Source: Thermoplasmata archaeon
Lineage (GTDB): Archaea; Thermoplasmatota; Thermoplasmata; Lutacidiplasmatales; UBA184
Direction: 5' to 3'
DNA length: 37,403 nt
Assembly: GCA_030040625.1 (NCBI GenBank)
Contig: JASHTI010000076.1
Coordinates: 1-37,403, forward strand
Position 1 is the stretch's first letter; every line of letters begins with the position of its first letter. This document shows positions 24,800-37,403 of this stretch, piece by piece. The notes under the pieces were generated by a model that did not search any database, was not told the DNA's origin, and saw only the letters and a list, made by a program, of their open reading frames with translations. Position numbers and translations under genes: made by a program.

Positions 24800-26710
24800 A
24801 TGCCCCGGCGACTTTCGGCGATCATGTTCACCGACATCGTCGGCTTCACGCCGCTGACCCAGGACGACGAGCGAGGGGCGCTACGCGTGCTCCAGGAGCA
24901 GGAGGAACTCGTATCGCCTCTGCTGGCCGCGCACCAGGGGCGGAAGATCAAGTCGATCGGAGACGGGCTCCTCATCGAGTTCGAGGACGCGCTCGACGCC
25001 GTAGAGTGCGGAGTGGAGCTTCAACTGCGCCTGAGGGCACGAAATCGAGGGGAGGGGGTCCGGTCGTTCCGGATCCGGGTCGGCATTCACCTCGGAGACG
25101 TTCAGCGACAGGGCGATGACATCCTCGGCGATGCGGTGAACATCGCCTCGCGCATCGTCCCGCTGGCCGAGCCGGGAGGTGTGTGCATCTCCGAGCATGT
25201 GGCGGCCCAGGTGCGGAACAAGGTCGCCTACCGCCTCGAGGACCTGGGCCGACGGTCCCTGAAGGGGGTTCGCGAGCCGGTCACGCTCTACCGGGTCCTG
25301 CTACCGGGCACCGGCCCCGAGACGCTCTCCCCTTCCGCCGGGGTGCCCCGCCTCGCGGTTCTCCCGTTCGCCAACATCAGTCCGGACCCTAAGGACGAGT
25401 ACTTCGCCGATGGCCTCACCGAGGAACTCATCACGACGCTCTCTCAGCTGCACAACCTCCAGGTGATCGCGCGTACCTCGGTGATGCAGTACCGCGCCGC
25501 ACCGAAGTCGATCGCCCAGGTCGGAGCGGAACTCGGGGTGAGCGCGGTCCTCGAGGGCAGCGTCCGAAAGGCCGATCGGCAGCTCCGGATCACGGTCCAG
25601 CTCATCGACGTCGCCTCCCAGGCGCACACGTGGGCGAGCACCTACGATCGGACCCTCGACGACATCTTCGCGATCCAGACCGAGGTGGCGAAGCGGATCG
25701 CCGAGGCGCTGAAGGTTCGACTGGCGGCGACCGAGGAGCGCCGGCTCGAAAAGGCGCCCCGGGTCGACCCCGACTCCTATCTGGCCTACCTCCGGGGCCG
25801 CAACGTCCTCCGATCCTCGTACCGGGAGGAGGTGATGGCGTCGGCTGGGAAGGAGTTCCAGACCGCGATCGCCCTCGATCCGCGGAACGCCATGGCCTAC
25901 TCGGCGCTCGCCGATGTCACGAACCTCAGCGGTGCGTTCTACCGCCGCGAGAGTCGAGCGAGCTGGACCGCCGACTCTCGCCCCCTCGCGGAGAAGGCCC
26001 TGGAGCTCGATCCGAACCTCGCCGAGGCGCACGCCTCGCTGGGACTGATCCTCTACAACAACACCGAGTGGACCGCGGCGGAGAAGGAGTTCGAGATCGC
26101 GCTCGACCTGAGCCCGAGCTACTCGGCGGCGCGGGTCTACTACGGCGCCCTGCTCATGGAGGAGGGGCGCCCGGACCAGGCGCTCCGCGAACTGGCCCTG
26201 GCGGAGGCCTCCGACCCGCTCTGGGCCAGCTGCGTCGACTTCCACACGCGATTTCTCGTAACCGTGCGAAGGATGGTGGAGGCGAAGACGAGCCTGGATC
26301 ACCTGCGCACCCTCGACCCGGCCGGTCTCCTGTACTACGGGGCGCTGGCGTACTACCATCTGGCCAACGGCGATCTCGCGCAGGCGTTGCCGGCCGTCGG
26401 GCGCGCCGAAGGGCAGCGCCCCGGCTCTGAGTGGTTCTGGCGGCTCGCCTACCTCTGCCAGAGCGGAGCCGTAGCGGAGGCGAGGACGCTTCTGGCGGAG
26501 GTCGAGGCGAGGCCCGCTCCGGAACCCATCTCGACCCGCGCGCAGGGACATGCCCTGCTGGGCGACCTGGACGGCTGCTTTCGGCTGCTGGAGCAAGGCG
26601 CCCGGGAGGGAGTTCTCTCCCTGCAGTACCTTCGGAACGACCCGTGGTTCGAATCCGTCCGAGCCGACCCGCGGTTCGGTCGGATCCTGAAGGAACTGAA
26701 CCTTCCCTGA
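24800..26710 (+). CDS. Class III adenylate cyclase domain + TolB-N-like module + TPR repeats, paralogue A
   Basis: Metal-binding Asp residues in IMFTDIVGFT and IKSIGDGLLIEF. The Lys of KSIGD suggests ATP specificity. Transition-state Asn/Arg in GDAVNIASRI. Then AVLPFANISPDPKDEYFADGLTEELI...VLEGSVRKADRQLRITVQLID, followed by about 300 aa of TPR-like helices. Confidence 0.85.
   Translation: MPRRLSAIMFTDIVGFTPLTQDDERGALRVLQEQEELVSPLLAAHQGRKIKSIGDGLLIEFEDALDAVECGVELQLRLRARNRGEGVRSFRIRVGIHLGDVQRQGDDILGDAVNIASRIVPLAEPGGVCISEHVAAQVRNKVAYRLEDLGRRSLKGVREPVTLYRVLLPGTGPETLSPSAGVPRLAVLPFANISPDPKDEYFADGLTEELITTLSQLHNLQVIARTSVMQYRAAPKSIAQVGAELGVSAVLEGSVRKADRQLRITVQLIDVASQAHTWASTYDRTLDDIFAIQTEVAKRIAEALKVRLAATEERRLEKAPRVDPDSYLAYLRGRNVLRSSYREEVMASAGKEFQTAIALDPRNAMAYSALADVTNLSGAFYRRESRASWTADSRPLAEKALELDPNLAEAHASLGLILYNNTEWTAAEKEFEIALDLSPSYSAARVYYGALLMEEGRPDQALRELALAEASDPLWASCVDFHTRFLVTVRRMVEAKTSLDHLRTLDPAGLLYYGALAYYHLANGDLAQALPAVGRAEGQRPGSEWFWRLAYLCQSGAVAEARTLLAEVEARPAPEPISTRAQGHALLGDLDGCFRLLEQGAREGVLSLQYLRNDPWFESVRADPRFGRILKELNLP
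25361..25413. repeat. Left copy of an inverted nucleotide match shared with 37071..37123
   Basis: 25361..25389 (ctcccgttcgccaacatcagtccggaccc) is the exact reverse complement of 37095..37123. 25394..25413 (gacgagtacttcgccgatgg) is the exact reverse complement of 37071..37090. Compared by hand. Confidence 0.85.
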
Positions 26711-29643: not shown

Positions 29644-29674
29644 GATATAGTGTGGTTACATGTAGGTCATGTAG
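29644..29674 (+). promoter_or_regulatory. Putative vapBC promoter/operator: TATA-like gatatag plus two direct catgtag repeats
   Basis: gatatag lies at 29644..29650, 30-36 nt before the ATG at 29680. catgtag occurs at 29659..29665 and 29668..29674 (9-nt register). The first copy lies within the palindrome acatgt. Confidence 0.4.
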
Positions 29675-29679
29675 CCATC

Positions 29680-29931
29680 ATGGCATCAAAGACCGTCGCT
29701 CTGGACCTGGAAGCGTACGACCTGCTGAAGCGGCAGAAGCGGTCGGACGAGAGCTTCAGCGATGCGGTGAAACGTCTAGCCCGCCCCCGTCGCCCTATCT
29801 CCGATTTCGCAGGTCTGTGGGGCGATCTGTCGGCCACCGAGCGCCGAGCCCTGGACGAGGCGTACAAGGACCTACGGGCCGCGGATCAGCGGCGCGCCGA
29901 TCGCATACGCGACCACTGGCGTGAGCGATGA
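29680..29931 (+). CDS. vapB: VapB-type antitoxin (archaeal DUF217/UPF0330-style)
   Basis: ATG at 29680. KTVALDLEAYDLLKRQKRSDESFSDAVKRLA matches the KTIxIxxEvYexLxxxKxxxESFSDvI pattern. Its stop overlaps the vapC start. Confidence 0.75.
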   Translation: MASKTVALDLEAYDLLKRQKRSDESFSDAVKRLARPRRPISDFAGLWGDLSATERRALDEAYKDLRAADQRRADRIRDHWRER

Positions 29932-30314
29932 AGTGTCTCGACTCGACGTTCTGCATTGACCTGCTCAAGGGACTCCCGGAGGCCCGGGCTCGGGCCGAGG
30001 AGCTTGTCCGCGAAGGAGAGCGGCTGGCAATCGCGGCGCCGGCGTTGACCGAGGTGCTCGTGGGCGCCTTTCGACAGGGTGGTCGACGCCTGGCTCAGTC
30101 CCTTGATTTCGTCGCGCAGCTGGAAGTCCTAGGCGTCAACGAAGACATCGCCCTGGAGGCGGCACGGGTAGGGGGCGAGTGCCTCCGACGGGGCGAGGCG
30201 GTGGGCACCACGGATCTGTTGATCGCCGCAACTGCGAAGCAGCACCACGCCCACCTAGTTAGTAGAGATCGAGACTTCGCACGCGTTCCCGGGCTCATCC
30301 TCGAGACCTACTAG
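29928..30314 (+). CDS. vapC: PIN-domain ribonuclease toxin VapC
   Basis: ATGA overlap with vapB at 29928..29931. Acidic quartet: D5 (CLDSTF), E in LTEVLVG, D in TTDLLIAATA, D in SRDRDF. Confidence 0.85.
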   Translation: MKCLDSTFCIDLLKGLPEARARAEELVREGERLAIAAPALTEVLVGAFRQGGRRLAQSLDFVAQLEVLGVNEDIALEAARVGGECLRRGEAVGTTDLLIAATAKQHHAHLVSRDRDFARVPGLILETY

Positions 30315-30462: not shown

Positions 30463-30867
30463 GTGATGGCAATGATGGGAACCCGCGACATCTACACCAG
30501 CATTCCAGTCCACCAATCGACCCTGCGCGCATTACGGCCCGTCAAATCTGCTGGCCAAACATGGGACGATCTATTGATGGCACTAGCGGACGACTACCTC
30601 TCCCCGGCGCTGAAGCGCGGACTTGACCGTCGGTCGTCGACGGAGGACATCGTGCCCGGGACCGCCATGAAACGCGAGTACAACTCGTGGAGACGCGAGC
30701 GTGGCAAGCCGTCGCGCCGGCGACGGGCCAGATTTCACCCGGACAGCGAGCCTTCAGTTCTGGGCGCTGCCAGCCTCGGCGATCGAAGCGTTTGCCGCCG
30801 CGTTCGTAGAGCTCACCCCGTACCCGGAGCGGCATTCGCCCACCCTCGACGTCTTCCCGATCCGTAA
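30463..30867 (+). CDS. Antitoxin-like small protein upstream of the RelE/ParE toxin; 3' end doubtful
   Basis: The N-terminal part IYTSIPVHQSTLRALRPVKSAGQTWDDLLMALADDY has the same style as archaeal ribbon-type antitoxins. Start options are 30463 (GTG) and 30466/30472/30475 (ATG). After about residue 80 the ORF becomes R/P-rich and overlaps the toxin out of frame. Confidence 0.45.
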   Translation: MMAMMGTRDIYTSIPVHQSTLRALRPVKSAGQTWDDLLMALADDYLSPALKRGLDRRSSTEDIVPGTAMKREYNSWRRERGKPSRRRRARFHPDSEPSVLGAASLGDRSVCRRVRRAHPVPGAAFAHPRRLPDP

Positions 30868-31009
30868 CGATCCCGTTCGTTGGAGGCTGAAGGCTGTCGG
30901 TTACCGCGCGATATACCAGATTCGACCGGGCCGGGCGGTGATCGAGGCCATTCTACCCCGAACGGAATGGACCTACGAGGACTTCGAAGCACACCGCAAG
31001 CGACCCTGA
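30701..31009 (+). CDS. RelE/ParE-superfamily toxin
   Basis: DFTRTASLQFWALPASAIEAFAAAFVELTPYPE ... RWRLKAVGYRAIYQIRPGRAVIEAILPRTE matches the RelE/ParE pattern (ft..A.kql..L, yR.rvG.yRviY.i......v..v..R). GTG start; this frame is closed by a TGA at 30668..30670. Confidence 0.7.
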   Translation: MASRRAGDGPDFTRTASLQFWALPASAIEAFAAAFVELTPYPERHSPTLDVFPIRNDPVRWRLKAVGYRAIYQIRPGRAVIEAILPRTEWTYEDFEAHRKRP

Positions 31010-31168: not shown

Positions 31169-31693
31169 CTAGGCGACTATCTCGCGAACCACCATCGGCT
31201 TCTGGTCGGCCATGTCGAGGAGCGGTGAGCATGTCAGGAGGGCACGGTCGTTCGTGAAGAGAACCTCACAATCACGGCACGCCACAGCAGACGCTGCAAC
31301 CAACGAATCCGTGAGCGCGAGATGCGAGTCGGCTCGCCGCAGGCTTCGCGCAATGCCCAGCGTGTCGTCACCCCCATGATCGCCCAACCCGCAGAGTTGG
31401 ATGCGTCGGTCTCGGACAGCGACCAGCAGGCGTCGGGAGGCGTCATCCGCTAGGCTAGCTGCGAGGGATGACTCGGCAGCATCGCGAGCGATTGTGAGGA
31501 AGACTTCCCCGATAACAATCTGGCTTATCGTCGGCGGGTGGCTGGCCCCGTGTCGGAAGAACAGTGTACGAGCGGCTCGGAGTATGTCCGGATCCGCGTC
31601 CCAATTCAGGAGGAACGGGCGCGCGTAGCAACTGTCTACGTGTGCCCAATGAGTTCCTTGTGACTGCTTAGGAATGCTCGAACCTCCTTCCAA
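31169..31693 (-). CDS. PIN-domain nuclease, putative toxin partner of the upstream Panacea-like protein
   Basis: Acidic residues in HVDSCY, VIGEVF, LTDSLVAASAVA and FTNDRAL. The only canonical start upstream of the first Asp is TTG at 31693, which overlaps the upstream gene by 58 nt. Confidence 0.65.
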   Translation of the reverse strand: MEGGSSIPKQSQGTHWAHVDSCYARPFLLNWDADPDILRAARTLFFRHGASHPPTISQIVIGEVFLTIARDAAESSLAASLADDASRRLLVAVRDRRIQLCGLGDHGGDDTLGIARSLRRADSHLALTDSLVAASAVACRDCEVLFTNDRALLTCSPLLDMADQKPMVVREIVA

Positions 31694-32145
31694 GTGGGTT
31701 CGCTCAGGTGGGGTTTGATTGACTTAGCCCAAGCTAGCGCTGTCTGCACGTCGCCGCGGGAGGTGACCCCGTCCACCACGGTTGTAAGGCCCTCCAAGAA
31801 CTCGGGCCCCCGGGCCATGGCAGACGCAACCGTGTCCAGAGTCGACGGACTCAAATCGGCGGCCGGAGAGGCCGATCTCAAGCCCGCGTCTCCCAGCGCG
31901 TAGTAAAGTTCGGCCAGGTCCGGGGAGTATGGACCGTTGAGGTACATGTTGTAGCTAAGCCGGGCCGCCGCCGGGTAGCCCAGCTTTCGCAGCAGATAGA
32001 CTGCTTTCTGGATCTCGAATCGTCCGGGTTTCGAGGTCATTGAGAATGGACGCCCGGTTTTCGCGGAGAGCGCACTCAGGGCCCGAGCAATAGCTCGGCG
32101 CTGCTTCTGGAACGTAATCGGCTCCGCCGTCATCCCCAAGGTCAT
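31636..32145 (-). CDS. Panacea/SocA (DUF4065)-like putative antitoxin
   Basis: ATG at 32145, preceded by GAGGTG 5 nt upstream. FEIQKAVYLLRKLGYP...YNMYLNGPYSPDLAELYYAL resembles the DUF4065 core (LQKLLYxA...W.YGPV.P.VY). Called from memory, not a search. Confidence 0.5.
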   Translation of the reverse strand: MTLGMTAEPITFQKQRRAIARALSALSAKTGRPFSMTSKPGRFEIQKAVYLLRKLGYPAAARLSYNMYLNGPYSPDLAELYYALGDAGLRSASPAADLSPSTLDTVASAMARGPEFLEGLTTVVDGVTSRGDVQTALAWAKSIKPHLSEPTWKEVRAFLSSHKELIGHT

Positions 32146-32346: not shown

Positions 32347-32529
32347 CTAGGAGTCGCGGAAAACGGAACCGAGAATCACAAGCAGGGCCCCGAATAGCGC
32401 AAGGCCTGCGTACAGCTCGATCGCAGCCCCGTATATACCCGGTACAAACAGCAGATGCCACCACCCGTACAACTCCATCAGCACCCCCAGGGTGATAGCC
32501 GACAACGATGCAACTGGCAGGTCTGTCAT
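32347..32529 (-). CDS. 60-aa two-TM membrane protein translationally coupled to the HNH gene
   Basis: ATG at 32529 lies 2 nt after the HNH TAA stop (TAA-GG-ATG on the minus strand). Two hydrophobic helices: SLSAITLGVLMELYGWWHLLF and AAIELYAGLALFGALLVILGSVF. Confidence 0.6.
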   Translation of the reverse strand: MTDLPVASLSAITLGVLMELYGWWHLLFVPGIYGAAIELYAGLALFGALLVILGSVFRDS

Positions 32530-32531
32530 CC

Positions 32532-32786
32532 TTACCTCGCGCAGCCACAATAGCTGCAGTGGTCGGTGTCGCCTTTTGCACGGTTGCAGGGAATACACAT
32601 AGGTTGGAGGTTGCGAAGATTCTGACTTCCGCCCCGCGAGGCTGGCACCCGATGGTCAACCTCCCAGGCGCCCCGGCTTCCGAAGCTGCCGTAGTTAGAG
32701 TAGCTCAACTGCTTCCCGCAGCATGCGCACTCGCCGCGGCCATACTCGAATATCTCGGAGAGCCGATCCTCGCTGTAACCTGGCAT
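32532..32786 (-). CDS. Small (84 aa) HNH endonuclease with a Cys-rich zinc-finger frame
   Basis: Trimmed to ATG 32786. GECACCGKQL ... WEVDHRVPASRGGSQNLRNLQPMCIPCNRAKGD is a canonical HNH (H-N-N plus CxxC pairs). The C-terminal tail is HCSYCGCAR. Confidence 0.8.
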   Translation of the reverse strand: MPGYSEDRLSEIFEYGRGECACCGKQLSYSNYGSFGSRGAWEVDHRVPASRGGSQNLRNLQPMCIPCNRAKGDTDHCSYCGCAR

Positions 32787-32831
32787 CGCCTCGGTGAACT
32801 CCGGGCCCGCCTTCGAGAACGAAGTGCGATA

Positions 32832-32837
32832 TTTATA
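32832..32837. promoter_or_regulatory. TATA box (tttata / tataaa) in the 90-nt divergent spacer between the HNH operon and the regulator
   Basis: 32821..32880 has only 23 G+C of 60 by my count. tttata lies 40-45 nt before the GTG at 32877 and about 46-51 nt before the ATG at 32786 on the other strand. Confidence 0.5.
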
Positions 32838-32860
32838 GTACGTCAGCTTAATAGGCTGAG

Positions 32861-32876
32861 TTACCAGTATTGGTAA
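32861..32876 (+). promoter_or_regulatory. 16-bp palindrome TTACCA-GTAT-TGGTAA abutting the regulator start codon; candidate operator
   Basis: Read directly. The perfect 6-bp arms end 1 nt before the GTG at 32877 and sit downstream of the TATA box, where an archaeal repressor would block TBP/TFB/RNAP recruitment or initiation. Confidence 0.5.
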
Positions 32877-33689
32877 GTGTTGGAGCAAACACACCCGCCC
32901 GTCCGCGTCGAGGTGGCGCCGGTCGGGTATTATGTCGACCGAGTGGTGGAGCCGATAACCCGCCACGAGGCAGATCGCATCTACCTCGTACGAGCGCGGG
33001 ACGATTCCGAGGACCGTGCTGCACCCTTTCGTGAGAAGGTCATCAAGCAGCTACGGGCCTGGCGACCCAGCGTTGAGGTCCGTGTGGTAAAGACGGACCT
33101 CTGGACCCTCGAAACCGCTGTGGAGACGTTCTCGGCGATTATAAGAAGTGAGGTACAAGCCGGCAATTCCGTCTGGGTGAACTTGTCGACTGGAAGCAAG
33201 CTGGAGGCCGTCGCCGCGGCCCTAGCCTGCATGGGGAACGGGGGGGTTCCGTACTACGTTCGCATGCGGAGCTACGAGCGATCGGAGCCGCCCAAACCCT
33301 TGGCAAGCGGCGTCGCTTCAATCGATACGGTGCCTACCTTCGGATTAGCCGCGCCGTCCGAGGCTGGGCTTCAGCTGCTCAGCCTGTTGGCGGAGAATCT
33401 AACGGGGCTCTCGAAGAAGGATCTGATACGCGGTATCGAGGAACTGGGTCTCTTCCCCCCGGAGATTGCAAACAGGACAGTCCAGGCTCGATACGCCCGG
33501 TTGCAGGCTATCCTAGACCGTCTAGCGGAGCCACCCGGCCTAGTGGAGCTGGAGGGCCGGAGGCGTGCGGGTCGAGTCAGGATTACAGCGCGGGGTCGCC
33601 TTGCTTTGCGCATATTCCACCCGCGCCTTGGCTTGGCCGACCCTCTCCAGCCCCACGCGGCCGCCTCCGATCCGCTCTCACGGCAGTAA
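32877..33689 (+). CDS. HFX_2341-like (DUF6293) regulator: Rossmann-like N-terminal domain plus C-terminal winged helix; distantly Csa3/CARF-like
   Basis: VRVEVAPVGYYVDRVVEPI...ADRIYLVRA...SVWVNLSTGSKLEAVAAALAC follows the HFX_2341/Csa3 N-domain layout (hIvpvGf..dRv...., vyLl, vwvNvs.G.k). The C-terminal LSKKDLIRGIEEL...RLQAILDRLAEPPGLVELEGRRRAGRVRITARG looks like a wHTH. GTG start; TTG at 32880 is also possible. Confidence 0.6.
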   Translation: MLEQTHPPVRVEVAPVGYYVDRVVEPITRHEADRIYLVRARDDSEDRAAPFREKVIKQLRAWRPSVEVRVVKTDLWTLETAVETFSAIIRSEVQAGNSVWVNLSTGSKLEAVAAALACMGNGGVPYYVRMRSYERSEPPKPLASGVASIDTVPTFGLAAPSEAGLQLLSLLAENLTGLSKKDLIRGIEELGLFPPEIANRTVQARYARLQAILDRLAEPPGLVELEGRRRAGRVRITARGRLALRIFHPRLGLADPLQPHAAASDPLSRQ

Positions 33690-33822: not shown

Positions 33823-34911
33823 CTAGAATCGCCGGGAGTAGACCTCAGCAAGGAATTGTGATCTAAGGCGGTACCGCCGACCGCGACGCTCTCCGCGAGC
33901 CTCCAGGATCCCAGCCGCCTTCAGCTCGTCCAGGGCAGCCCACAAGGCGGGCTGGCTGTATCTGGACGGATTGGGGTAATCGCTTCGGCTAAACCACTCG
34001 CCCGTTCCGCCGAGAACCCAGCGCAGGACCCTCCGGGTGCTCTCTCGGGTGAAGTCAGAGATCAACGGGCTCAGGTTGGCTTGCTTCGCAGCAGCCTTGT
34101 AGGCCTCCTTGGTTTGGGACGCGAAGTAGCGAGCCCACAGCGAGTAGTTCTCTCCCGAGTTTGTGGTTCCAAGGAACTCATAGTAGTTCTCGGAGGTCCG
34201 GAAGAACCGAGTATCCAGCGGAATCAGCGGGGCCTTCGAGCAGCCGAGATCTCTCAGAATGGCGATGTTCAGGAACCGCCCTACGCGGCCGTTGCCGTCC
34301 ATGAATGGGTGGATCGCCTGGAACTCTGCGAAGAACAACGCAGCCACGACGGGGGCGAGGTAGTCGTAGCGTGAGGAGCGGTACCAGTCAAACAGAGACT
34401 CGAGCTCCGGGATCGTTCGATGGGGGGGTGTCGGAGTGAAGCGCAGACTGCCCGAGCCTTCGTTGATGATGTAGTTCTGCTCGGGCTTCGTGACTCCAAC
34501 CCAATCGTCACGGAGGACTCCTTTGCCATCGTGGAGCAGCCCCGTGAAAAGGGTGTGATGAATCTCCTTCACTCCATCAACCGAGAGGTCGGGGAGGCGG
34601 TTGCCCGCTAGCCCGGAGTAGGCTCGAGCCAGTCGCGCTACGCCCTCTTCAGAGGGTGAGCCGGGTGCAGCTCCTGCTACGATCTCGCGAGCGCGATCGA
34701 GCTCCACTGACTCACCCTCGAGCCTGAAGCTGCTCACCGCGTTGCGCACCCTCGCCATCCCGAGAAGGATTTGGTGCAGCTGTGGCGAGAGCAACCGGGT
34801 TTCGAGGATTCCGTCCAGCCTCAGGCACTCCGTGGCAGGTGCGCCCACATCATCTCGCACCCTCAGGTTCGGATGGAAGCCGGCGGACGTGTCCCGCTTG
34901 GTCAGAGGCAT
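33823..34911 (-). CDS. Fic/DOC-family protein (class II, internal inhibitory helix) with a C-terminal winged helix
   Basis: Intact Fic motif HPFMDGNGRVGR at 34276..34311. N-terminal inhibitory motif SFRLEG, matching (S/T)xxxE(G/N), at 34714..34731. C-terminal ALWAALDELKAAGILEARGERRGRRYRL. Confidence 0.9.
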   Translation of the reverse strand: MPLTKRDTSAGFHPNLRVRDDVGAPATECLRLDGILETRLLSPQLHQILLGMARVRNAVSSFRLEGESVELDRAREIVAGAAPGSPSEEGVARLARAYSGLAGNRLPDLSVDGVKEIHHTLFTGLLHDGKGVLRDDWVGVTKPEQNYIINEGSGSLRFTPTPPHRTIPELESLFDWYRSSRYDYLAPVVAALFFAEFQAIHPFMDGNGRVGRFLNIAILRDLGCSKAPLIPLDTRFFRTSENYYEFLGTTNSGENYSLWARYFASQTKEAYKAAAKQANLSPLISDFTRESTRRVLRWVLGGTGEWFSRSDYPNPSRYSQPALWAALDELKAAGILEARGERRGRRYRLRSQFLAEVYSRRF

Positions 34912-35746: not shown

Positions 35747-37403
35747 TCAGCTGGCCGGGTTGGTGGCCTGCATGGGACGCCCGGCCTGGATCACCAGCAT
35801 GACGAAGCGTGGGTCCTTCCGGGCGGCGGCGAGCAACGGCGACAGACGGACTCGGACCGCCTGCAGGGTGTGGTTTTTCGCGGCGGCGACCATGTATTCG
35901 AAGTACTTGTCCAGGTCCCCGAGCGCGTGGTAGATGTACCCGATGGAGGACTGGCGGGAGGTCCCCTTCTTGAACAGTTGATCGAGCTTCGCGATCATAC
36001 TCACTGCGGCGTCGCGGTCCCCGCGCATCGCCGCAAGCACGCCTCGGCTGAGGAGCGCCGGATCGCTGTTCGGGGCAGCCTGCTCCAGTGCCAAGACCAT
36101 TCGGTGGGCTTCCTCGAGGTCCCCTTTCAGCATCGCGCACTCGGCGAGGCCCCGGTAGGCGTCGATCGGGTCCAGCTCGGTGTGCGCGCGCCAGTGGACG
36201 AGCGCCTCCTCGTACCGTCCCGAATTGAAGTAGGCCTCGCCCTGCCGACGAATCATCGGCGGGGAGAGCGGATCGAGCCGATAGGCCTCGTCCGCGAGGA
36301 GGGTGTACGATTCCATGATACCAAAGGAGCCCGCGAGCGAGCTCAGGATACTGTGAGCCTGCGCGAGGTTGGGGTTGAGCTCCAGCGCCCGACGGAGCTC
36401 CCGATCTAGAATCTCCGCGGGGGCGTCCGCCATGAACGCCAACTCCCCCAGGGCACAGTGTGCGTCCGCGAGGTCGGGGTCGAGCTTGCTCGCCCTCTCG
36501 GCGGAAGCTTTCCCCATCTCGATGGCGCCGGTCCAGGTCAGGTAGCCTTCCGTGCCCAGGTTGATGTACGCGCGGGCGAGGCCCGCATAGGCCCGGGCAA
36601 AGGTCGGGTCCGACTCGATCGCCCGCTGGAAGTGTTCCAGCGACTTCCGCAGCGACGGCTCGTCGGTCTTCCAGACCAATGCCTGCCCCTGCAGGTAGGC
36701 GAGGTACGCCTGGGTCTCCTTGGGGCGCTCGAGCTCCGGCACGGGCGCCTGGGGCTTGACCAGGCTTCCCGGCAACGAGGTGGCGACCTTGGTGGCGATC
36801 TCGCTCTGCACCGCGAAGATGTCGTCCAGGTCATCGTCGTACTTCGCGGTCCAGAGGTGCTCCTCCGTCCCGACGTCGATGACCTGCACCGTGACCCGGA
36901 TCTTGTTCGCAGCTCGGCGAACGCTCCCCTCAACTACCGTGCCGACGCCGAGCTCCTTCCCTATCGCGGCGACCTTCTTCTCGGCCTTCTTGTAGCCGAT
37001 GACCGATGTGCGGGCAATCACCTTCAGGCCCGGAACGAGCGACAGATTCGCGATCAGCTCCTCGGTCAGCCCATCGGCGAAGTACTCGTCGTTCGGGTCC
37101 GGACTGATGTTGGCGAACGGGAGCACTGCGATGCGTGTCTTGTCGGCCGTGTTCGAGGACCCATTGTTGGACTCCCCTCCGGTTCCGGCCCAGGACGGCA
37201 CCACACGGTAGACTTCGACCGGTGCGGCGACGCCCTTCAGGGATCGGGGCTCGAGCTTCTCGAACTGTTCGGTGACCTTGGAACGCACCTGATCGTAGAC
37301 GGCTCCGGAGACGCAGATCCCGCCCGGCTCCGCGAGTGGCTCGATCCGCGCCGCCACGTTCACCGCGTCGCCGAGTATGTCCTGCCCGGACTGGACGACG
37401 TCA
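35747..37403 (-). CDS. Class III adenylate cyclase domain (N-terminus outside window) + TolB-N-like module + TPR repeats, paralogue B
   Basis: The frame stays open to the window edge (..DVVQSGQDILGDAVNVAARIEPLAEPGGICVS). Then AVLPFANISPDPNDEYFADGLTEELI...VVEGSVRRAANKIRVTVQVID and TPR-like helices. Same architecture as 24800..26710. Confidence 0.85.
   Translation of the reverse strand, partial: DVVQSGQDILGDAVNVAARIEPLAEPGGICVSGAVYDQVRSKVTEQFEKLEPRSLKGVAAPVEVYRVVPSWAGTGGESNNGSSNTADKTRIAVLPFANISPDPNDEYFADGLTEELIANLSLVPGLKVIARTSVIGYKKAEKKVAAIGKELGVGTVVEGSVRRAANKIRVTVQVIDVGTEEHLWTAKYDDDLDDIFAVQSEIATKVATSLPGSLVKPQAPVPELERPKETQAYLAYLQGQALVWKTDEPSLRKSLEHFQRAIESDPTFARAYAGLARAYINLGTEGYLTWTGAIEMGKASAERASKLDPDLADAHCALGELAFMADAPAEILDRELRRALELNPNLAQAHSILSSLAGSFGIMESYTLLADEAYRLDPLSPPMIRRQGEAYFNSGRYEEALVHWRAHTELDPIDAYRGLAECAMLKGDLEEAHRMVLALEQAAPNSDPALLSRGVLAAMRGDRDAAVSMIAKLDQLFKKGTSRQSSIGYIYHALGDLDKYFEYMVAAAKNHTLQAVRVRLSPLLAAARKDPRFVMLVIQAGRPMQATNPAS
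37071..37123. repeat. Right copy of the inverted nucleotide match shared with 25361..25413
   Basis: See 25361..25413: exact 29-nt and 20-nt reverse-complement matches separated by 4 mismatching nt. Confidence 0.85.

Follow-up and report, generated by a model that had tools for sequence, protein, structure and literature searches.

A CARF-type regulator divergent from a minimal nuclease and a predicted antitoxin-toxin pair forms a conserved four-gene cassette in Thermoplasmata-type archaea

Organization of the locus

The locus described here lies in a 37,403-nucleotide (nt) stretch of DNA from a Thermoplasmata archaeon (contig JASHTI010000076.1, assembly GCA_030040625.1; the whole stretch is referred to as the window). 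At its center is REG, a gene for a protein with a CARF domain and a winged helix, which is divergent from an operon that begins with a minimal HNH nuclease gene (HNH) and ends with two genes named p192 and p174; a 60-residue open reading frame (ORF) with two hydrophobic helices, TM60, lies directly after HNH (Table 1). An earlier interpretation of this DNA, made without database searches and hereafter called the sequence-only reading, had proposed HNH, TM60 and REG as a three-gene unit. The coordinates, the 2-nt spacing and the divergent geometry that it gave for these genes all agree with the ORF listing and the sequence. Its boundary was drawn wrongly, and the conserved partners turned out to be the two downstream genes (32145..31169) that it had listed among the neighbors.

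Table 1. Features at the locus, with the cassette and its shared promoter region ahead of the neighboring genes
Feature	Coordinates	Strand	Description
REG	32877..33689	+	270 amino acids (aa); GTG start; CARF (HFX_2341_N) and winged helix (DUF6293_C) domains
HNH	32786..32532	-	84 aa; TAA stop at 32534..32532 (ORF listing and sequence)
TM60	32529..32347	-	60-aa ORF with two hydrophobic helices; ATG starts 2 nt past the HNH stop
p192	31636..32145	-	~169 aa from the ATG at 32145; 192-aa open frame extends to 32214; stand-alone DarG C-terminal domain homologue, predicted antitoxin
p174	31169..31693	-	TTG start; PIN-like predicted RNase toxin; overlaps the p192 3' end by 58 nt (window coordinates)
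HNH/REG spacer	32787-32876		90 nt
Putative bidirectional promoter/operator core	32828..32863		36 nt; from the alignment of eight loci
TATTTATA	32830-32837		Resembles a TATA box for the operon on the minus strand
CTTAATA	32847-32853		Followed by GCTGAGT; REG GTG ~27 nt after the TTAATA box
Palindrome TTACCA-gtat-TGGTAA	32861-32876		6-nt arms
VapB/VapC	29650-30314		Island neighbor of the cassette; confirmed by Pfam/PADLOC scans
VapB-like/ParE-like pair	30463-31009		Weak; ParE-like call from one weak match
Fic/SoFic-like gene	33823-34911		PADLOC SoFic, 6e-36

A conserved four-gene cassette

The conserved unit is REG, divergent from an operon of a minimal Cys-tailed nuclease, p192 and p174. With hidden Markov models (HMMs) built for these genes, and with near-identical copies counted once, the full set was found in 8/8 independent loci where the contig allows (the window and loci L012, L047, L049, L051, L067, L069 and L070). 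A census from the side of the regulator covered 24 close homologues, metagenome loci and four contig look-ups, and in every REG locus with enough sequence REG is divergent from p192-p174. The cassette is of Thermoplasmata-type archaea, and in the window it is carried on an island of low G+C content at third codon positions (GC3).

The locus most readily compared with the window is L012, a 102-kb contig of a Thermoplasmata metagenome-assembled genome (MAG), which is syntenic with it for the four genes only, at protein identities of 70% (REG), 78% (HNH), 57% (p192) and 60% (p174). The link between HNH and REG that the sequence-only reading had drawn is upheld by this divergent pair and by another in L002 (REG 29%, HNH 71%). 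Outside the four genes no synteny was seen between cassette loci, and their flanks are unrelated, holding VapB/ParE, MazE-PIN, AbiEii, HEPN_AbiV or IS110 genes. In one case two assemblies of the same cassette are available (L067 and L068), and in L068 an IS110-family transposase is inserted directly downstream of REG.

The position behind the shared promoter is a slot whose occupant changes. HNH fills it in the window and L012, and a GIY-YIG-like protein takes its place in the six other cassettes, which makes HNH itself replaceable. The slot protein is the most conserved gene of the cassette (GIY-YIG-like 64-82% identity, compared with 54-70% for REG, 52-73% for p192 and 40-71% for p174), and it co-diverges with the other cassette genes (r 0.36-0.78).

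REG is a CARF-wHTH regulator

REG matches the Pfam families HFX_2341_N (101.3 bits; cut-off 30) and, in its winged helix, DUF6293_C (37.2 bits; cut-off 27), and is covered end to end by the PADLOC profile CARF3--CARF (1e-48), where CARF3 is PADLOC's label only. An AlphaFold (AF2) model built on 25 sequences has a predicted local distance difference test (pLDDT) score of 86.9. In Foldseek searches with this model Csa3 came top, including what the PDB titles describe as complexes with cyclic tetra-adenylate (cA4), followed by the CARF-winged helix-turn-helix (wHTH) ring nucleases (Crn1-type) Sis0811 and SSO1393 and then by Csm6, Can2, Cam1 and Cad1, all of these matches having a probability of 1.0. 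By the fold of its model, REG belongs to the CARF superfamily. It carries a loop, N-L-S-T-G-S-K, that is invariant among the 25 sequences and fits the CARF signature [DN]x[ST]xxx[RK]. The earlier description of this protein as an HFX_2341/DUF6293-type N-domain joined to a winged helix and related to CARF/Csa3 is thereby confirmed by Pfam, PADLOC and Foldseek on the AlphaFold model.

Orthology to either of the named relatives was considered and rejected. For HFX_2341 (Crr), REG reaches 22.9 bits with NCBIfam NF051475, whose cut-off is 500, and is ~31% identical to haloarchaeal-type relatives; for Csa3, it scores 35.9 bits against a cut-off of 60.2 with TIGR01884 and has no adjoining cas genes. 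The distant relatives at ~31% identity, apparently haloarchaeal, occur in other contexts without the cassette partners, several of them adjoining a putative GatB gene. Sequence searches of the PDB with REG, p192 and p174 returned artefacts only (designed repeat proteins). A member of the REG family, HFX_2341, has been described as a transcriptional repressor (PMC11434293).

A putative shared promoter core is conserved across nuclease types

Alignment of the eight loci, which include both nuclease types, gives the consensus TATTTAAG-N10/11-CTTAATA-n2-CTGArTA for the region between REG and the operon, which falls at 32830-32861 in the window, and its two TATA-like boxes are kept whichever nuclease type is present. 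This core may act as a promoter/operator, and the ~27-nt spacing from the TTAATA box to the REG GTG would be compatible with a leaderless archaeal transcript of REG. The sequence-only reading had described an AT-rich spacer with a TATA box and a palindrome, of which part stands: the TATA boxes are present and a 51-nt core has 37% G+C, but the spacer as a whole has 50% G+C. The palindrome is not conserved in related loci and is not upheld as the operator.

A minimal HNH nuclease or an unrelated GIY-YIG-like protein occupies the slot

HNH scores 40.9 bits against Pfam PF01844 (cut-off 21.4) and combines a CxxC/CxxC zinc site with the C-terminal tail H-C-S-Y-C-G-C. Residues C20, C23, D44, H45, N59, C64, C67 and N68 are invariant in 23 sequences of its family, in agreement with the complete HNH core and CxxC pairs noted from the window alone. 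The close family is small, consisting of 22 clusters with 50-88% identity, nearly all of 84 aa, from metagenomes and Thermoplasmata MAGs. Across loci the HNH coding sequences are 64-75% identical as DNA, their products are 67-88% identical as protein, and their flanks are at background identity. Because the DNA has diverged this far while the protein has not, long purifying selection is indicated rather than recent spread, and its divergence marks HNH as an old, selected, itinerant gene and not a recently spreading element.

The GIY-YIG-like slot protein has 108-120 aa and ends in C-x3-C-x2-C-S-Y-G-H. Its profile match spans the whole UvrC GIY-YIG domain (E 0.04), and the catalytic motifs are kept without exception, GVY, YVG, R46, H50, E62 and N87 being invariant. 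Scans of the slot nucleases (84-108 aa) revealed no DNA-targeting or other extra domain, and profiles of HNH, the GIY-YIG-like protein and REG had no match in IMG/VR viral contigs. A free-standing homing endonuclease was rejected as the identity of the slot nuclease on the lack of a targeting domain, the filling of the slot in 8/8 loci and the HNH DNA identity of 64-75%.

Cys-rich C-S-Y tails are found in both of these unrelated nucleases, as ...H-C-S-Y-C-G-C-A-R in HNH (32532-32558) and as ...C-P-R-C-S-Y-G-H in the GIY-YIG-like protein (L047:3605-3640), and HNH copies outside cassettes mostly end in H-C-x-A-C-G-C-R-R. The shared C-S-Y tail may be a partner-binding or zinc motif, or a coincidence.

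p192 resembles the toxin-binding domain of DarG and p174 is PIN-like

p192 is conserved in all eight cassettes, and an exhaustive phmmer search assigned its family 161 representative clusters of ~160-aa proteins. Among the 101 p192 clusters scanned, 92 match positions 162-243 of the PADLOC DarG model (best 6e-11) and 66 match the same C-terminal region of the NCBIfam DarG model, the latter far below the equivalog cut-off (19.5 vs 250 bits). An AlphaFold (AF2) model of p192 (pLDDT 94.9) found its only meaningful PDB match by Foldseek in chains D and B of 7YK3, the Mycobacterium tuberculosis DarTG complex (template modeling scores 0.55 and 0.51; probabilities 1.0 and 0.96). Both the profile matches and the modeled fold point to p192 as a stand-alone homologue of the toxin-binding C-terminal domain of DarG, which in DarG sequesters DarT (PMC7003065), and by analogy p192 is a predicted antitoxin. 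p192 has no Pfam match. An assignment to Panacea (SocA_Panacea, PF13274) was also considered; neither p192 nor seven homologues match it, 1/101 relatives does so, weakly (E 6e-4), and the DarG C-terminal assignment replaces it.

p174 is likewise conserved in all eight cassettes, with invariant acidic residues D20, E63, D129 and D149, and by HMM coordinates it overlaps p192 in other loci much as it does in the window. In an hhalign comparison of p174 with VapC the E, TD..AA.A and T.D motifs align, at a probability of only 11%. From these motifs, p174 is probably PIN-like.

TM60 is probably translated but is not part of the cassette

Several properties set TM60 apart from a chance reading frame. 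Its in-frame GC3 of 0.70 matches that of the neighboring genes, and its ATG is preceded, at a distance of 7-11 nt, by a Shine-Dalgarno-like GAGGT contained in the final codons of HNH. Among 2093 mechanical ORFs taken from comparable DNA and close to TM60 in size, only 3 attain its grand average of hydropathy (GRAVY) of 1.25 and only 16 have two hydrophobic segments. TM60 is probably a real, translated gene.

It has no relatives in the data searched. A word-indexed search of 5.8 billion proteins matched only TM60 itself, tblastn found nothing in any related locus, including 12 other independent HNH loci, and it is absent from all seven other cassettes, the syntenic L012 included. The gap between HNH and p192 in L012 is 133 nt, and the window has ~250 extra nt there; in GIY-type cassettes the slot nuclease and p192 are separated by 60-90 nt, which leaves no room for TM60, and no conserved elements were seen between nuclease and p192. 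A small transmembrane ORF downstream of HNH occurs in only 1-2 of the 12 other independent close-HNH loci. One such ORF, of 69 aa and 34 nt after HNH in L007-L009, has no similarity to TM60 by BLASTP. Among 28 distinct distant HNH relatives, 17 carry a hydrophobic C-terminal tail, mostly a glycine-zipper helix, one of them from a Thermoplasmata MAG.

The idea that TM60 is a co-conserved partner of HNH is therefore refuted by its lack of relatives. For a dependence of HNH on a two-helix membrane partner the support is indirect only and comes from the fused C-terminal glycine-zipper helix of many distant bacterial HNH relatives. TM60 is best read, from its distribution, as an orphan, lineage-specific insertion between nuclease and antitoxin and not as a defining cassette component, possibly serving as an extra membrane toxin or anchor. 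Within the sequence-only reading, the claim that holds up least well is the coupling of the nuclease to a tiny membrane partner.

Proposed function and alternative explanations

From the composition observed, we infer that a ligand-sensing REG controls an operon of a nuclease and a toxin-antitoxin pair that serves addiction or abortive infection, with a probability of about 0.6. REG would bind the shared promoter and set expression of the operon, and a small nucleotide ligand on its CARF domain would alter this control. In the manner of a type II antitoxin, p192 would sequester and so neutralize the p174 PIN RNase, and possibly the DNase too. An infection signal, stress or loss of the element would upset this balance and let the nucleases stop growth or destroy nucleic acid, which would make the cassette a regulated module for addiction or abortive infection. 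The earlier proposal of this locus as a candidate for an undescribed addiction or defense module is upheld. PADLOC-DB v2 gave no system-level match, only isolated domain matches (CARF3 for REG, the C-terminal region of DarG for p192, and nothing beyond a weak REase_II/PtuB match for HNH). Full-text literature on HFX_2341 and DUF6293 comprised only the 2024 Haloferax paper, and no description of the cassette gene combination was found. All of the parts come from known superfamilies (CARF-wHTH, HNH or GIY-YIG, DarG C-terminal domain, PIN), and their combination is undescribed in the literature found.

Several observations weigh against this interpretation. Neither a cas gene nor a cyclic-oligoadenylate synthase was found in the scanned part of the window or in the cassette loci. 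The assignments of the two predicted nucleases other than HNH fall below Pfam thresholds, with 3/3 p174 homologues scoring 13-15.6 bits against PF01850 (cut-off 23.6; E 0.025-0.17) and 3/3 GIY-YIG-like proteins scoring 19-19.8 bits against PF01541 (cut-off 22.6). The nuclease is not exclusive to the cassette: contexts of close HNH relatives are very diverse, at least 11 of them unrelated and without REG, p192 and p174, and the closest relative of the window HNH (L011, 88%) lies outside any cassette. The census is small, its eight independent loci coming from metagenomes of soil, peat and other sources with one taxonomic label, and toxicity, neutralization and the binding of DNA and of a ligand are all predictions.

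A more specific version holds that the cassette is a CRISPR-independent CARF module, in which a nucleotide second messenger, sensed by REG, switches on a suicide or defense operon of DNase and PIN RNase restrained by a DarG-C-type sequestering antitoxin, the DNase being an exchangeable cartridge recognized via the shared Cys-rich tail and TM60 being a protein of de novo origin recruited in the window as an extra component; in this full form it is conceivable but unlikely. It would also be possible for REG and p192-p174 to form a true three-component toxin-antitoxin unit, with the slot a hotspot for selfish HNH or GIY-YIG endonucleases that contribute nothing. Two unrelated nuclease families, each of a classical homing-endonuclease kind, do occur at one site, and HNH is itinerant: its contexts are many, its flanks are no more alike than background, and the nearest relative of the window copy lies outside any cassette. 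Yet the slot is never empty in the eight loci, its occupant exceeds the other three genes in conservation and co-diverges with them, and the excess of HNH protein identity over DNA identity speaks for long purifying selection. These proteins of 84-108 aa moreover have no DNA-targeting domain, are placed behind a conserved promoter motif and were not found on IMG/VR viral contigs, and selfish occupancy of the slot appears distinctly unlikely.

The three-gene unit of the sequence-only reading, in which TM60 would localize or gate the nuclease under REG in defense or addiction, can draw on the 2-nt stop-start spacing with its GAGGT motif, the in-frame GC3 and exceptional hydrophobicity of TM60, the unrelated transmembrane ORF after HNH in L007-L009 and the hydrophobic tails of more than half of the distant HNH relatives. 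It fails because TM60 is not co-conserved, an outcome that the sequence-only reading had itself named as counting against it: TM60 has no homologues, is missing from L012 and the GIY-type cassettes and is unlike the L007 ORF, and small transmembrane ORFs are rare behind close HNH relatives. Such a unit is improbable. There may, finally, be no system at all, only unrelated toxin-type genes accreted in a variable island, with a shared order that reflects common descent of close genomes. The island does carry VapBC, a ParE-like pair and Fic as well, and the archaea that carry the cassette are all uncultured and related, but at protein identities of 40-70% the genes retain their order and orientation, p192 still overlaps p174 and the promoter motif persists, while each locus has different surroundings beyond the four genes, and mere accretion is very doubtful. 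Control of a nuclease and toxin-antitoxin operon by a ligand-sensing REG is the reading that we prefer.

Relation to known systems

REG is like the CARF-wHTH factors Csa3 and HFX_2341 (Crr) in its two-domain architecture, Pfam families, Csa3 fold and N-x-S-x-x-x-K loop motif. It differs from them in being an orthologue of neither, in not lying beside cas genes and in its pairing with a divergent nuclease/toxin-antitoxin operon. With DarTG the cassette has in common the C-terminal toxin-sequestering domain of DarG, by HMM and by fold of p192, but neither p192 nor the neighbors scanned match a macrodomain or DarT (DUF4433), and the adjacent predicted toxin is PIN-like.

The cassette also resembles VapBC-type (PIN) pairs and tripartite toxin-antitoxin systems such as paaR-paaA-parE, with which it shares the antitoxin-toxin order, the gene overlap, a PIN-like acidic tetrad, a separate transcription factor gene and a location in a toxin-antitoxin-rich island. 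Unlike these systems, it has an antitoxin fold that is DarG-C-like and not VapB, AbrB or RHH, a CARF sensor as its regulator and an extra, swappable DNase gene that leads the operon. A constant antitoxin-type domain beside changing nuclease genes recalls PanAT, in which the antitoxin carries Panacea (DUF4065), although Panacea membership is unsupported by Pfam here; promiscuous partner swapping has been described for PanAT (PMC8832971). Like the WYL regulators BrxR and CapW, REG is a ligand-sensing type of wHTH regulator beside effectors that it presumably controls (PMC9122601, PMC4012209), and the cassette departs from theirs in the sensor fold (CARF vs WYL), the archaeal host and the effector set.

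If functional, the cassette would represent a toxin-antitoxin or abortive-infection module under a CARF-type sensor with no cas genes nearby, and would extend CARF signaling past the ancillary proteins of type III CRISPR. It gives the large, mostly uncharacterized HFX_2341/DUF6293 family a concrete, testable target operon, and its 36-nt conserved promoter core is a ready substrate for footprinting. It further shows the toxin-sequestering domain of DarG on its own, as a family of antitoxin type (~160 representative clusters) that is paired here with a PIN-like toxin. The replacement of one mini-nuclease by another at the same place, HNH or GIY-YIG, amounts to a natural experiment on the requirements of the slot.

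Surroundings of the cassette in the window

The compositional island extends over ~29.6-35 kb and has a GC3 of ~0.7 (0.66-0.74) compared with ~0.9 elsewhere (0.82-0.95 in flanking genes), in line with the lower G+C that the sequence-only reading had reported for this block. Its list of toxin-type neighbors holds for VapB/VapC and Fic; its RelE-like gene, here ParE-like, is a single weak match, and its Panacea-like call has no Pfam support. No convincing direct repeats flank the island borders, sigma-70 and terminator scans gave chance-level signals only, and the window had no match in either the tRNA or the Rfam scan.

In a large protein encoded at 24800-26710 (plus strand), TPR repeats come after a Pfam class III adenylate/guanylate cyclase domain, and another protein encoded at 35747-37363 (minus strand) was likened to it by eye only, which is the basis for calling the two paralogues. 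Together they flank the island, and a tie to the REG ligand would be pure speculation.

HNH relatives outside the cassette

The settings of close HNH relatives include Cas1 with a 316-aa protein of unknown type (L001), ParB with a PAPS-reductase-like gene (L003) and a 1513-aa giant protein (L007). At L002:212-3502 a REG-like CARF-wHTH gene (29%) is divergent from an 84-aa HNH (71%), which is directly followed by a 705-aa long prokaryotic Argonaute with a Piwi domain and then by two DNA methyltransferases, a second pairing of regulator and HNH with other cargo. In three Thermoplasmata lineages (L006, L014 and L015) an HNH of 84-88 aa lies 0.5-1.9 kb from the gene for the PolD large subunit (DP2), and in L006 and L015 it is found between DP2 and ftsZ in opposite orientations, which suggests a variable spot between core genes. 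Across 40 loci the wider HNH family has no conserved partner apart from PolD DP2 proximity (3 loci) and methyltransferases (3 loci).

At L011:1369-1923 a 97-aa ORF begins 6 nt after HNH and has a GIY-YIG-like motif (GLYEV...YHGQASNLRTRLLQH) with a weak score; it overlaps a called gene on the opposite strand and was not called by the gene caller of the source. The last HNH codons there, GCG AGG TGA, are Shine-Dalgarno-like for this next ORF, as in the window.

A wider HNH family marked by the motif RGAWEVDH occurs in Myxococcota, Planctomycetota, Acidobacteriota, Gemmatimonadota, Nitrospirota and others (for example L022-L043, including L023:5001-5414, L031:5001-5426 and L035, and protein P0022). 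Its members are mostly ~140 aa long, with an HNH domain joined through a basic linker to a glycine-zipper transmembrane helix at the C terminus, and have weak Pfam matches to Gly-zipper, Rick_17kDa and Bacteriocin_IIc. From this layout the family looks like an apparently undescribed group of tail-anchored mini-nucleases with no conserved neighbor. Identical genes of this HNH-transmembrane type with identical flanks are present in MAGs labeled Acidobacteria, Phycisphaerales, Proteobacteria and Planctomycetota (L036, L037, L038 and L039), for which mis-binning of one organism is a more likely explanation than transfer. At L030:5001-5729 the genes are in tandem, an HNH-transmembrane protein being followed 12 nt later by a 101-aa paralogue that lacks the transmembrane helix.

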